64,000 nucleotides of DNA from positions 384,001 to 448,000 of the forward strand of contig MTLY02000003.1 in assembly GCA_002011035.2 (NCBI GenBank), read 5' to 3'. This stretch comes from Candidatus Hecatella orcuttiae. GTDB taxonomy: Archaea > Thermoproteota > Bathyarchaeia > Hecatellales > Hecatellaceae. Position numbers and translations under genes: made by a program. A model generated the notes under the pieces. That model ran no database searches, had not been told where the DNA came from, and saw only the letters and a program-made list of their open reading frames with translations. Positions 3,995 through 31,794 of this stretch are shown piece after piece (within the stretch, counting starts at the first letter, position 1; the number at the start of each line of letters is the position of its first letter).

Positions 3995-5312
3995 CGCCGA
4001 TATCTATCACGGAAAGCCTCAGGCATTTAACCTTTTTTCCCAGCACCTCGGCGATGCTGGGAGTCGTTCTACCCTCATCCCCGTCCACCAGTTCTTTTAC
4101 ATAGAGGCCGCCTTGACATTTTAGGGTTACTTCAAACCTGCTGTCTGAAAGCTTTTCAGCTTTCAAACTGTAGACCCGCCGCTCTCGCTCCTTGTCTGCT
4201 CTCCGGTGGAGCACCCTCCTGGGTGTGAGCTGTCGGATAACCCTATCTGTGAAGGCTTTTTCCACAGCGTCCAGGTCTTCCTCCGTCAGCCTCTCTGTTG
4301 ACTCTACTAGGAAGCGGTAGACTTTAGGGCTTGCCTCTGCCGCTTTGACCCTTCTGACAGCGTCTTTGCCTGCGAGCTTGAGGTCTAGAACCTCCACCCT
4401 GCCCCCTGCGTTCACCTCCCTCCTAACTCTTTCAAGGTCGATGAAGCGTCTTCGAGGGTTTTTCACCTCCACGACGAAGGGTCTTCCGCTGCCTAAAACC
4501 TGAGCGTCGATGTCTTCGCGGCCTCCTGCGTGGAATTCAGCGCCCTCTCCCTCCGTCAGCTTCAAGATGGGAGCTTCTAGGATTTCTTGAACTGATTCAG
4601 GGTATTTTTTACCTGTGCCCCCGCAGAAGCTACAGCCCTTGCCTCCGCATCTTCGGCAAAGCCAACGGGACTGAGGGATCCCCGTGACCAGTTTCCGGTA
4701 TCGACCTTCAACGAAAAGGGGGTTAGCCTTCAAGGTGAACTCGTTTTTGAAGGGGGAGACTGTGACCACGAGCTCCGGGTTGGCGAAGTCCGCCTGTTTA
4801 CCTGTGAGCTTCGACAGGGTCTTCCCGATTTCCCGGGTGAATTCGCTTTTCATGCTTTCCCCCCACTCCGCCCCGCACCGCGCCCTTACCGAGTCCTCCG
4901 CCTCCAGAAGCTGAGCGGGAATCTTGGCTCCCACCAGAAAGGTGTTGAATTCAAACTCCTTGGCTTTTTCAGCAATCTCCGCTGCGAGCTGGGGGATTTC
5001 TTGAATTTTTCCCCTGCAGAGCTGACATTTCTCTTTTTTCCCCTTTCCTGCTTCAACCCCCAGCCTCCGAAGGGTCTGCGCGGCGGCTTCAAACATGCCG
5101 TGAGCGGCCAGTTTTCTGAGAAGCCTCACCCCGGCTTTATCCTCTGCCTGAATCATGCTGTGGGCCTCTAGGAGGAGGGTGTTTTTCAGCGACCGGCCTC
5201 TCTCCGCATTGTCCATCCCATGGCCTAAGGTGGCGAACTGTCTTCCGAGGCAGTTGTCGCAGAGGCGGTATTCTTCCAGCAGTCTCTGAGCCGCGTCCAG
5301 TATTCCGCCCAC
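3975..5312 (-). CDS. pus10: tRNA pseudouridine(54/55) synthase Pus10
   Basis: LCDNCLGRQF, GRYRKL...QSRW, GREDID, GGLYVKELV. Confidence 0.92.
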   Translation of the reverse strand: MGGILDAAQRLLEEYRLCDNCLGRQFATLGHGMDNAERGRSLKNTLLLEAHSMIQAEDKAGVRLLRKLAAHGMFEAAAQTLRRLGVEAGKGKKEKCQLCRGKIQEIPQLAAEIAEKAKEFEFNTFLVGAKIPAQLLEAEDSVRARCGAEWGESMKSEFTREIGKTLSKLTGKQADFANPELVVTVSPFKNEFTLKANPLFVEGRYRKLVTGIPQSRWLCRRCGGKGCSFCGGTGKKYPESVQEILEAPILKLTEGEGAEFHAGGREDIDAQVLGSGRPFVVEVKNPRRRFIDLERVRREVNAGGRVEVLDLKLAGKDAVRRVKAAEASPKVYRFLVESTERLTEEDLDAVEKAFTDRVIRQLTPRRVLHRRADKERERRVYSLKAEKLSDSRFEVTLKCQGGLYVKELVDGDEGRTTPSIAEVLGKKVKCLRLSVIDIGGEEDEV

Positions 5313-15919: not shown

Positions 15920-16012
15920 GCGGCCGTAGTCTAGCTTGGTTAGGACATCAGCCTGCCAACCTTGGGAGGCAGAACGCTGAGGACCCGGGTTCAAATCCCG
16001 GCGGCCGCACCA
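15920..16012 (+). tRNA. tRNA-Gly(GCC) with 16-nt intron at 37/38 (15959-15974), encoded CCA
   Basis: Acceptor GCGGCCG/CGGCCGC, anticodon GCC at 15955-15957, T-loop TTCAAAT; central helix CTGC/GCAG with 3-nt bulges CA^A and AA^C. Confidence 0.95.
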
Positions 16013-24033: not shown

Positions 24034-25440
24034 TCAAACTTTCGAGAGTTTCTCGAGGCGTTCTACACAATTAATTTTGATGCCGAGCAGTTCAGCGATC
24101 CTAACTTTAGCTTCGAGTCCTTTCGCTGCACCCGGTAAACCAGTTATAACACCGATGTCAAGTTTTTCCCTAAGCTTTCTCATAGTAAACTCATCACAAA
24201 GCTCTATTGAGGAGACACCTAGCTTTTTAGCGACGTAATCCTTCGCTTCAGGTAGTCTCATTTTCTTTTGCAACTGCATCCTACCAATCAGGTCGCCTGA
24301 TGTTCTGATGCTGCCTATGCCACCGGCTACCAGATGCCCAATGGGCATTCCAATGCAGTCTCCGACACCCACCTAAATGCCATCGACGCCGGCTATCTCG
24401 ATCATAGCTTTGTTCGCTCTAGTTACTGTATCCAACGGTGGTGTTTCTAACATGGGCACGCCGCCTACACCCATTCCCATGTTGGGGTGAACAGGGATAG
24501 TCGCTTCTCTCACGCATGCCTTGGTAAACGTAACCGCCCTGGAGAGATTCCATGGGAAAGTGAGGTGGGGTTTTGTATTTATCACAGGTCCAAATATGTC
24601 GACACCCGCTTTTTCCGCTACTTTAAGTTGTTGATGCGGCCACATTCCAGCCAAACGTTCTCCTGCATATTTCAATTCCGTGTGAAATCCGTGTACAGCC
24701 TCGGTAGCCATACCCATCTGGACAGCTAGGTCGGGGTACACCTTTTTCAATGACTCTGTAGCCGTAAGGGCTGCATAAAAGTCAGGATCTCCCGCCGCTC
24801 CTACTGTATCGATATTTATTCCATCCACGCCTACTCTTCTGAGATGTTTAGCTACATATATTATGGCATCATGACATTCTCGAGCAGCGCCCTCCATAGA
24901 TTTCCTCGCTTCGTCGTTCTTTCCTTCTCTGATCAGAGAGATCGGTTCAGGCCATTGACCATCAGGCTTATAGAAATAGCCTAAGTTGGGCATAGCCATG
25001 AATTCTAGAGGACTGATCGACGTGTGCAGAGTATTGTGGATAACATTCGCCAAATAGCTCACTATTACCTTTGCAGGCTTAAAGCTTCCATCCGATTCAG
25101 GAAATTGTAGTATATCAAGTCCAAGCACCCTTTCAGACAGCGCTCCTTGAGCAATGGAACGTTCAATCGGCATACCTAATCCACTAGTGCCAGAGTCAAT
25201 CCAGAAAGTCGAGCCTCCTGCATCAGCGGACAGGACGACCTCGCATCCATGTTTTACAGCCACAACCTTATTGGCGTCGATGATAATTTCATATAATGTT
25301 TCCAGATCTTCGCCGGTTAATTCGGGTATTTTCGCCCTTTCTGCAGCGTCTTTTGAACCCAATTCTAGGTCGTCTTTGATCTGTTTACCCGTCATGGTGA
25401 TCAGTCTACCATCGCCTCTTCTCGTCAAATGTTCTGGCAT
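24034..25440 (-). CDS. mtbB: Dimethylamine:corrinoid methyltransferase MtbB with in-frame amber (pyrrolysine) codon at 24373-24375
   Basis: Two abutting in-frame ORFs join as ...[22 protein letters not shown]...; TAG is codon 356 of a 468-aa product ending at TGA 24034; SD AGGAGGTGA upstream. Confidence 0.92.
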
Positions 25441-25476: not shown

Positions 25477-26127
25477 TCATTTTTTTAGAAGGCAAGTGCG
25501 GGATGCAAGGAGTCTTTTAGCTTTAACTACAGCATCCATTGCGTCGGCACCCCATTCGTCGGCGCCGATCTCTTTTGCATGCAATTCGGTTGTTGCTCCT
25601 CCGCCCACCATTACTTTAACGTCATCACGAACTCCTGCTTCCTTCAGAGCATCAATTACCTCTCTTTGGGCGATGGCGGTTGTGGTCATGAGAGCGGAAC
25701 AACCTACAAATGCGGGTTTGTGCTTTTTAACTGCCTCTACAAATTTTTCAGCAGCAACATCTCGACCTAGATCGATGACATCGAATCCTTGAGCTTCCAG
25801 CATCGTGGCCACTATACTCTTACCGATGTCATGAATGTCGCCTTCAACTGTACCGATTATGAACTTGGCTTTTTCACCTCTTTTCTTCCTAGGCACTTTT
25901 TTAAGCAAAACGTCCGCAACCTTCTTGATGGCCTCGGCAGAAAGAACTACTTGTGGAAGAAATATCTCTGACCTACCGTATAGATCTCCTACCTGCCTGA
26001 TAGCCTCAGAGGCATGGTCCAACGCCCTTAAAGGTTCAATACCTGCTTTCAGACAAGCCTCAGCGATTTTAACAGCGCCCTCAACATCTTGATTTAAGAT
26101 CGCATTATAGAGCTTATCTAGTTCCAA
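25477..26127 (-). CDS. mtbC: Methylamine corrinoid protein (MtbC-like)
   Basis: B12-binding GTVEGDIHDIGK, SALMTTT, VMVGG; directly upstream of mtbB. Confidence 0.88.
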   Translation of the reverse strand: MELDKLYNAILNQDVEGAVKIAEACLKAGIEPLRALDHASEAIRQVGDLYGRSEIFLPQVVLSAEAIKKVADVLLKKVPRKKRGEKAKFIIGTVEGDIHDIGKSIVATMLEAQGFDVIDLGRDVAAEKFVEAVKKHKPAFVGCSALMTTTAIAQREVIDALKEAGVRDDVKVMVGGGATTELHAKEIGADEWGADAMDAVVKAKRLLASRTCLLKK

Positions 26128-31443: not shown

Positions 31444-31603
31444 GGCGTATTGATAGTTCTATCATCATAGTTTTAGTAGTTTCCAGCAAACATCTATGAC
31501 CTGTTAATCTAAGCCCAACAGCATTTAAAAGAGAAAATTATAAAGAATTTAATCTCCAGCCAGCACCCATAAGTAAAATGGGTGAGGAACCGAACCTGAA
31601 GTT

Positions 31604-31704
31604 TGGAGCCCCGGGCGGGGTTTGAACCCGCGACCTTAGCCTTACCAAGGCCACGCGCCACCAGGCTGCGCCTACCCGCCCTTGCTTCGTAAGGGAACCG
31701 GGGC
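31604..31704 (-). tRNA. tRNA-Thr(GGT) with non-canonical 24-nt intron at position 8/9 (31673-31696), encoded CCA
   Basis: After removing the intron: acceptor GCCCCGG/CCGGGGC, D-stem GCGC/GCGC, anticodon GGT (31644-31646), T-arm GCGGG-TTCAAAC-CCCGC, T73; BHB geometry at both junctions. Confidence 0.9.
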
Positions 31705-31794
31705 ATCTGCTCCGGGGCTTCAGGCTACGCTTTAAGTGTAGGATAAAATGAATATAAGAATTAAGTTCAACTCCCCAGGGGGATGGGTTCTCGG

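Follow-up and report, generated by a model that had tools for sequence, protein, structure and literature searches.

How can a tRNA precursor build a BHB splicing motif from bases that also belong to a very stable, G+C-rich acceptor stem? This question is raised by a tRNA-Thr(GGU) gene of Candidatus Hecatella orcuttiae, which lies on the minus strand of the window analysed here, a contiguous stretch of 64,000 nucleotides (contig MTLY02000003.1, positions 384,001 to 448,000). The gene is continuous and colinear with G1 at 31704 (positions are those of the window), and the neighbouring genes encode UPF0182, V4R, TrmB-PAS and HxlR proteins; relatives traced through one neighbouring protein, at 44-50% identity, are Thaumarchaeota or Nitrosopumilaceae MAGs. 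Exon 1 comprises tRNA positions 1-8 (31697-31704, minus strand; GCCCCGGT) and is followed by a 24-nt intron between positions 8 and 9 (31673-31696, minus strand). Exon 2 carries positions 9-76 with the encoded CCA (31604-31672, minus strand), including the 3' acceptor strand CCGGGGC (31614-31608), the discriminator T (31607) and the CCA itself (31606-31604). ARAGORN made no call for this gene, and the Rfam tRNA model RF00005, which matches at 31615-31672 with 36.1 bits against a gathering cut-off of 29, covers only model positions 9-63 because of the intron at 8/9. Removal of the intron in silico yields a canonical tRNA with U8, G9, a 4-bp D stem, the anticodon GGU, a T arm and a 7-bp acceptor stem.

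A motif scan of the gene revealed a strict hBHBh' motif, as defined in the available text of preprint 10.64898/2026.10.13.758758, with 3-nt bulges 3' of the central helix on opposite strands and at least 2 pairs in each flanking helix. Its central helix consists of four Watson-Crick pairs between tRNA positions C3-G6, which form the 5' strand, and the intronic CGGG (31678-31675). The two bulges on opposite strands, GTT (31698-31696) and TAG (31674-31672), have 3 nt each; 5 pairs (CCCTT/AAGGG) make up the inner helix, and the outer one is formed by 3 pairs involving G1, C2 and U-1. Within the intron lie the inner helix, a 7-nt loop, the CGGG and the first two bases of the 3' bulge. Relatives carry compensatory variants of the central helix, CCTG/CAGG in genome G003 and CTCG/TGAG in genome G001. 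A sequence-only reading of this locus had claimed that the BHB needs bases 1-6 of the tRNA and therefore excludes the normal acceptor stem, and the strict motif, with C3-G6 in the central helix and G1 and C2 beside it, bears this out. The genome encodes two EndA splicing endonuclease proteins (PF01974; open frames of 188 and 194 aa), a pair that would fit the two-subunit, broad-specificity type described in the available text of PMC5829648, as well as RNase P RNA (two matches).

The leader of the gene holds a second copy of the 5' acceptor strand. The heptamer GCCCCGG at 31712-31718 (minus strand) is identical to tRNA positions 1-7 (31704-31698), starts 14 nt upstream of G1 and is separated from it by the 7-nt spacer AGCAGAT (31705-31711, minus strand). 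Immediately upstream, and sharing its final G with the copy, the leader strand CCTGAAG (31718-31724, minus strand) is the exact reverse complement of the trailer strand CTTCAGG (31595-31601, minus strand), which starts 2 nt past the encoded CCA. Both features, the exact duplicate and the exact leader/trailer complementarity, had been singled out in the sequence-only reading and are confirmed from the letters. The heptamer occurs 124 times per strand in 1.75 Mb (7.1e-5 per nt), and about 0.003 copies are expected by chance in a 40-nt leader.

We consider it probable that the upstream GCCCCGG is transcribed and serves as a stand-in for the 5' acceptor strand, enabling the BHB to form. Since every relative examined with such an intron also carries a copy (see below), the copy probably substitutes as the partner of the 3' end until the intron has been excised. 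In the primary transcript, the copy would pair with the 3' acceptor strand CCGGGGC, in a helix that the Thr precursor would lengthen by six leader/trailer pairs, so that the 3' strand could no longer compete for the real bases 1-7. These freed bases and the 3' part of the 8/9 intron would form the BHB, at which the splicing endonuclease would cut, and the copy would thus be needed for splicing. Once ligation has joined the real 5' strand to the D arm, this strand would displace the copy, and a final RNase P cut at G1 would remove the copy together with the spacer permanently.

If a leader copy goes with an acceptor-proximal intron, the other tRNA genes of the same genome should reflect this association. 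A candidate scan based on the T arm and acceptor strand recovered 42 recognisable tRNA genes, five of which have an intron at 7/8, 8/9 or 9/10 with acceptor bases in the central helix. In each of the five, a copy of the gene's own acceptor 7-mer stands in the leader, 12-16 nt before G1, whereas among the remaining 37 genes there is a single case (Phe). Besides the Thr gene, these are the initiator tRNA gene (iMet; AGCGGGG twice, 8-nt spacer, 7/8 intron), Val(GAC) (GGGCCGG twice, 9-nt spacer, 7/8 intron with a relaxed motif), a class II Ser-like gene (GCCGGGG twice, 5-nt spacer) and Lys(UUU) (GGGCCTG followed by GGGCCCG, 8-nt spacer, 9/10 intron). No leader copy was found in the nine genes of this genome whose introns lie in the D loop or later and whose precursors keep the real acceptor stem. 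The Phe gene has its copy 35 nt upstream and no 5' intron; this copy may be a relic left after intron loss. Under a lax rule, 7 of 45 own-genome candidates have a leader copy, six of them real and one an artefact, and when acceptor identities were permuted in 2000 trials, the mean was 0.32 genes with a copy and the maximum three, compared with the six real ones. No 3' half lacking a matching 5' strand was found in the genome, and therefore no copy-less split-acceptor gene was overlooked among the detectable genes. The mirror case, a trailer copy of the 3' strand with an intron near the 3' end, yielded no candidate among the 42 recognised tRNA genes, beyond which a few may be hidden. The association of copy and intron is neither due to chance nor a one-off.

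We then looked for the arrangement in relatives with a search pattern that described the intron-bearing Thr gene and excluded the copy. Matches occurred in 22 of the 401 genomes of the class that were scanned, and 21 proved to be real genes; the match in G048 was dropped because it is not a tRNA. Every one of these 21 genes has a leader copy, as the exact 7-mer in 14, GCCTCGG in one, GCTCCG in two and GCCCC in four. BLAST added two Thr genes, in G003 (GCTCCGG followed by GCCCTGG) and G001 (GCCCCGG followed by GCCTCGG), so that the leader copy accompanies the 8/9 intron in 23/23 Thr genes spanning seven families, compared with 0/12 intronless Thr genes in which the same interval holds either the 7-mer or GCCCC as an exact match. 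A lax rule allowing G-U pairs (at least 5 pairs) was passed by 6 of the 12 intronless genes and dropped as a criterion; since it does not discriminate, the 5-nt copies in families f3 and f14 were counted by exact match only. Not included in the counts are L052 and five loci from the iMet search (not tRNA), L108 (contig edge), L110 (another tRNA), L009 and several BLAST loci (other isoacceptors or contig edges). The spacers range from 3 to 13 nt, and their sequences are unrelated between families.

The sequence-only reading had proposed as a check that orthologues with the intron keep the copy and intronless ones lack it. The Thr genes pass this check, and the same rule holds for five further identities. 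Within family f1, both Lys(UUU) genes with a 9/10 intron (the own gene and that of G008) have a copy, against 0/5 intronless ones; both Val(GAC) genes with a 7/8 intron (own and G012) have one, against 0/8; and all five Ser(UGA) genes with an 8/9 intron have one (GCCGGGG in two, GCTGGGG in three), against 0/3 intronless Ser(UGA) genes and 0/2 other Ser genes of the family. The Phe gene of G005 has a 9/10 intron and a copy, and four relatives have neither. The iMet genes with a 7/8 intron, our own and that of G024, both carry copies, two of them in tandem in the leader of G024. In total, among the sets assembled independently of the copy, it is present in 35/35 intron-bearing genes (Thr 23, iMet 2, Val 2, Lys 2, Ser 5 and Phe 1) and, as an exact match, in 1/35 intronless genes, a contrast that overstates the number of independent events because the genomes are related. 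By these counts, a leader able to pair with the gene's own 3' strand goes with a BHB that uses acceptor bases, in six tRNA identities and seven families. Families f21 and f18 contribute four more iMet genes, each with a 4/5 intron and a full leader copy, and G531, from another class of the phylum, a Leu-like gene with the same arrangement; all of these are biased examples because they were located via the copy itself. A phylum-wide scan for a doubled iMet strand matched 59 of 301 genomes, about as often as a reversed-pattern control, and among the 30 loci fetched only those of the own genome, G024 and G531 (the Leu-like gene) were tRNA genes; it therefore gives little information on the distribution of the feature.

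The downstream copy is followed by T in all listed intron-bearing Thr genes (in 21 of the 23 the search pattern required this), and the base after the upstream copy varies between A, T and C. Genome G024 contains three tandem AGCGGGG-AAT units, and the Val gene of G012, which has the intron and the copy, differs from that of G010 in the same genus, which has neither, by one contiguous insert after base 7 that comprises the spacer, the second copy and the intron. These two cases and the phasing of promoter-like boxes on the upstream copy (see below) fit a likely duplication of exon 1, with the upstream copy being the ancestral one.

The copy could therefore be a by-product of intron birth, through tandem duplication of exon 1 or an exon-like insert, that has no role and is lost with the intron. 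The tandem units, the single insert and the box phasing, as for an ancestral exon 1, speak for such a history, as does the joint presence or absence of intron and copy in family f1 (Thr, Lys, Val, Ser and Phe). The joint gain and loss seen within a genus would also follow from a purely mechanistic coupling at the origin. Yet a duplication origin is compatible with a later function, the own Phe gene has a copy without an intron, so the two can uncouple, and the copy was kept in seven families despite complete divergence of the spacer in sequence and length. The pattern of substitutions likewise speaks against a role-free remnant. All differences between copy and real strand within the paired stretch are C to U changes opposite G that preserve pairing (U6 in Lys; U3 in Ser of three genomes from two genera; U3 in Thr of G003 and f21; U4 in Thr of G090), with no transversions and no G to A changes in that stretch. 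In G001 and G003, copy and real strand differ from each other and both still pair with the unchanged 3' strand, so recent duplication or gene conversion does not explain their identity; in G001, the 3' strand even pairs better with the copy than with the real strand. On this evidence, we regard a copy without any role as unlikely.

Reading the copy as a stand-in makes predictions for the folding of the precursor, and these were computed for the Thr gene with different 5' ends. When the RNA begins at 31718 or at a more upstream position, its minimum-energy fold contains the decoy helix between copy and 3' strand, extended by the clamp where this is included, together with the BHB hairpin, whereas with the 5' end at 31711, 31706 or 31704 the acceptor stem is mostly kept and the BHB is absent. 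In the ensemble of the precursor, the decoy helix (the copy with 31614-31608) has a probability of 0.90-0.96, and the probability of the BHB central helix or of the whole motif is 0.35-0.46 with the copy and below 0.001 without it. Both kinds of fold thus return the arrangement that the sequence-only reading had put forward. With the copy present, enforcing the BHB costs 0.6 instead of 5.9 kcal/mol for Thr, 1.9 instead of 3.5 for iMet and 6.8 instead of 9.6 for Lys. Across genes, the median central-helix probability is 0.45 with the copy and approximately 0.000 upon its deletion, with the higher value obtained with the copy in 15/15 rows, which represent 14 distinct genes, the own Thr gene being scored twice. 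The rows of Lys, L002 and L051 gave probabilities near 0; L002 and L051 were scored on the wrong central helix, and Lys was recomputed. Copy deletion served as the sole control; reversing the 7-mer gives no valid control in Thr, since it can pair with the 3' strand in that orientation too.

The leader/trailer clamp is a more variable element. In the Thr gene it adds six pairs to the helix of copy and 3' strand, giving 13 bp that are paired in the minimum-energy fold and interrupted by a single 7-nt bulge on one strand. Of 16 copy-bearing genes, 5 have a clamp of 6 bp or more, compared with 5.3% of mismatched leader/trailer pairs (at least 7 bp: 1.1% of mismatched pairs), and that of G009 has a different sequence (CATATT/AATATG). 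The proposal that the leader captures the 3' strand and the trailer in about 13 bp, thereby freeing the BHB bases, is thus upheld by the predicted fold of this gene, but the full length of 13 bp is not general.

Alternatively, a transcribed copy could pair with the 3' strand to serve 3'-end protection, 3' processing, CCA checking or modification, and not the BHB. The decoy helix stacks on the T arm in the predicted folds exactly like the real acceptor stem, which would suit such a purpose, and the BHB of Lys is improbable even with the copy (1.6e-5). The order of transcription alone could also permit the BHB: it may form co-transcriptionally, before the 3' strand exists, and the copy may therefore not be strictly required. 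What argues against this explanation is that the copy is confined to genes whose BHB draws on acceptor bases and is absent from the nine own genes with introns in the D loop or later, and we judge it quite unlikely. As to the comparative pattern, the explanation by 3'-end pairing and that by BHB formation predict the same and are hard to separate.

For the copy acting as a stand-in, the nearest-neighbour energies also bear on the way back to the mature fold. After splicing in silico, the decoy helix is still favoured, with a probability of 0.00-0.12 for the true acceptor stem, and these energies do not predict a return to the latter. The switch would therefore need tertiary folding or the irreversible cut by RNase P.

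Any role in the precursor presupposes that the copy is transcribed. Promoter-like boxes were scored with a weight matrix trained on the upstream regions of 36 ordinary tRNA genes of the own genome. The best box of the Thr gene, AATTCTTATA (31753-31762, minus strand; matrix score 3.6), has A-rich BRE-like and TATA-like parts and is centred at -53 from G1 and -39 from the copy; a generic box scan agrees. Its position predicts a start near 31726-31730, upstream of both clamp and copy. A rival AT box, CTTAAAG (31730-31736, minus strand), lies about 29 nt before G1 and scores only 0.9 because the A-rich upstream part is absent; if it were used, the start would fall 2-4 nt before G1 and the copy would remain untranscribed. 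In the five own copy-bearing genes, the best credible box precedes the copy by 29-39 nt and G1 by 44-53 nt. The box median in the 23 copy-bearing Thr genes is -28 from the copy and -42 from G1, and that of 16 intronless genes is -32 from G1. The distance from box to copy is -24 to -40 in 16 of the 23 Thr genes, closer than -20 in five and further in two. In 8 of 10 genomes of family f16, an automatic scan found a conserved GCTTATG box at -26 to -28 from the copy, while the distance from copy to G1 varies from 12 to 16. The phasing of the boxes favours a start at or just before the copy, which would then be part of the transcript, in 16 of the 23 Thr genes and argues against it in five.

By the opposing account, the copy is untranscribed, lies between TATA box and start and either has a role at the DNA level or is a chance repeat or scar. 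It can draw on the CTTAAAG box, on the 18 of 36 ordinary own tRNA genes whose box centre lies 27-35 nt before G1, and on five of the 23 Thr genes (three f3 genomes, G238 and G001) whose best-scoring box lies 9-17 nt before the copy, so that the start would fall within or after it. However, CTTAAAG scores far below the upstream box, the own Val and Lys genes have no alternative AT box between copy and G1, and the box spacing in the majority of Thr genes fits the copy. A role at the DNA level would also leave the match to the gene's own acceptor strand and the exclusively G-U-compatible changes unexplained, and the adjacent genes include no integrase, which argues against a scar. We hold this account to be very improbable.

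Three further readings were rejected outright: an integration (att) scar, by the 7-nt length of repeats and spacer, the lack of a neighbouring integrase and the recurrence of the arrangement in five own tRNA genes; the upstream copy as the real exon, by the variable base that follows it, its length of 5 nt in f3 and f14 and the BHB cut after the downstream copy; and a split or permuted tRNA gene, by the continuous, colinear order of the gene and a leader/trailer helix without a BHB.

The copy as a stand-in resembles several known systems in part. In attenuators and riboswitches, a third strand captures a competitor and so favours one of two exclusive helices, an anti-sequestor logic. The tRNA leader would share this alternative pairing, but has no ligand or ribosome input; splicing is proposed to reset the switch, and RNase P to render it irreversible. 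Archaeal rRNA precursors have long processing stems of 5' leader and 3' trailer that contain a BHB and give rise to circular intermediates. As in these stems (PMC7714728, as far as its available text describes them), a helix of leader and trailer holds the ends of the precursor together, but the Thr helix has 13 bp with a single bulge and no BHB. In the split and permuted tRNA genes of Nanoarchaeum, Caldivirga, Thermofilum and Cyanidioschyzon (available parts of PMC4090602, PMC4033280 and PMC3218864), leader and trailer sequences outside the mature tRNA likewise pair and set up a structure for the splicing machinery. There, according to these parts, the leader/trailer helix is itself the BHB and is cut by the endonuclease, whereas here the partner of the leader is mature 3' sequence, their helix has no BHB, and the leader would be removed by a different enzyme.

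The closest parallel is provided by crenarchaeal tRNA genes of the Thermoproteales type, for which the available text of PMC4090602, citing Marck and Grosjean 2003 and Sugahara 2008, describes non-canonical BHB introns, some of them in the acceptor stem, for example at 3/4. As in those genes, the BHB is half exon and half intron, lies outside the anticodon loop and occurs in a genome with two EndA genes, and the precursor must abandon the cloverleaf to form it. The available passages on the Thermoproteales type mention no second acceptor copy and no partner for the displaced 3' strand, whereas here such a partner comes with every acceptor-proximal intron examined. The sequence-only reading knew of no description of such a leader element, and we found none of a leader copy of the acceptor strand in the parts of the literature searched, supplements aside (including Supplementary Note 3 of the Asgard preprint, on acceptor-stem introns). 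The core idea of that reading passes the comparative check and extends to a general rule in this lineage, with a mechanism that we infer.

We would go further only tentatively: in this stronger version, which we think somewhat less likely true than false, acceptor-proximal introns of this archaeal class, and perhaps of the wider phylum, occur only with a leader placeholder, arise in one step by duplication of exon 1 and impose an obligatory two-state maturation. The ancestral exon 1 would remain next to the promoter as the placeholder, and the new copy would serve as the exon. The placeholder helix would secure the 3' end during endonuclease cleavage, the strands would be exchanged once ligation is complete, and RNase P would proof-read this exchange.

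In annotation, an acceptor strand repeated in the leader is a sign of a hidden intron at 4/5 to 9/10, in genes that standard tools overlook or cut short. Duplication of exon 1 is suggested as a route of intron gain by how introns and copies come and go, by the tandem copies and by the promoter phasing. The stand-in explanation offers a testable, gene-encoded answer to how a BHB forms from the bases of a very stable, G+C-rich acceptor stem and, if the stronger version is true, the placeholder would act as a chaperone for RNA folding that is built into the precursor, and its presence would amount to a general rule for the sites at which tRNA introns are gained.

The leader copy, a repeat of a tRNA gene's own 5' acceptor strand upstream of G1, recurs in initiator tRNA genes of relatives. 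In one relative (G024), the initiator tRNA gene (L060/L076, G024:C50, about 1020-1085) carries three tandem units of AGCGGGG, separated by AAT, such that two leader copies lie ahead of the exon; as in the initiator tRNA of the window's own genome, the intron is located at 7/8. The initiator tRNA genes of four other genomes (L055-L057 and L064, from G066, G047, G106, and G037) are best read as having a 4-nt exon 1 (AGCG) followed by a 4/5 intron, and as being preceded, 9-11 nt upstream, by a leader copy that spans all 7 nt. Any gene caller that mistook the upstream copy for exon 1 would misplace the intron at 7/8.

The arrangement also occurs in other tRNA genes. A Leu(CAG)-like class II gene (L077, G531:C167, about 4606-4700), from a genome belonging to another class of the same phylum, combines a 5'-proximal intron with a 6-nt leader copy of the acceptor strand. 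A Val gene (L119, G012:C6) has a run of seven Ns at the expected promoter site, just 5' of the leader copy, and its promoter spacing is unreadable. The tRNA-Phe(GAA) gene of the own genome (L104, G000:C1:224550-224820) lacks a 5' intron, and its acceptor strand is repeated exactly 35 nt upstream, across a 28-nt spacer, with no promoter-like box found upstream of this copy. The Phe orthologue in G005 has a 9/10 intron and a copy at 6-nt spacing. The own-genome Phe copy may be the remnant of an intron since lost. Within the window, the tRNA-Gly(GCC) gene (15920-16012, plus strand), detected by both ARAGORN and Rfam, spans 93 nt and is therefore intron-bearing; it has no leader copy of its acceptor strand.

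On the trailer side, the motif AAACTTC.G.TT lies directly 3' of Thr genes in genomes from two families (31595-31603 in the window; also the trailers at L004, L012, and L022); some of the genes that share it have no intron, and one is a CGU isoacceptor. Two of these trailers pair with their own leaders, TAACCAG/CTGGTTA at L004 and TTGAAG/CTTCAA at L012. Judged from these sequences, the leader/trailer helix may predate the intron in Thr genes.

In the own genome, with an estimated contamination of 4.25%, archaeal RNase P RNA is matched over its full length at two loci (G000:C3:4813-5114 and G000:C2:470380-470771; 189 and 178 bits), reflecting either a genuine duplicate or a second organism within the bin.

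The window also encodes, on its minus strand, a full-length dimethylamine methyltransferase (24034-25440; Pfam Dimeth_Pyl, 592.7 bits), whose frame is uninterrupted solely with read-through of one in-frame TAG, near 24373-24375. Immediately 3' of this TAG lies a PYLIS_2 element (24276-24375, minus strand; Rfam, 44.5 bits), and a corrinoid (B12-binding) protein gene (25477-26127, minus strand) adjoins the methyltransferase gene. Together, the read-through frame, the PYLIS_2 element just after the TAG, and the adjoining corrinoid gene suggest that pyrrolysine is used in the window's lineage, whose relatives carry Thaumarchaeota titles.
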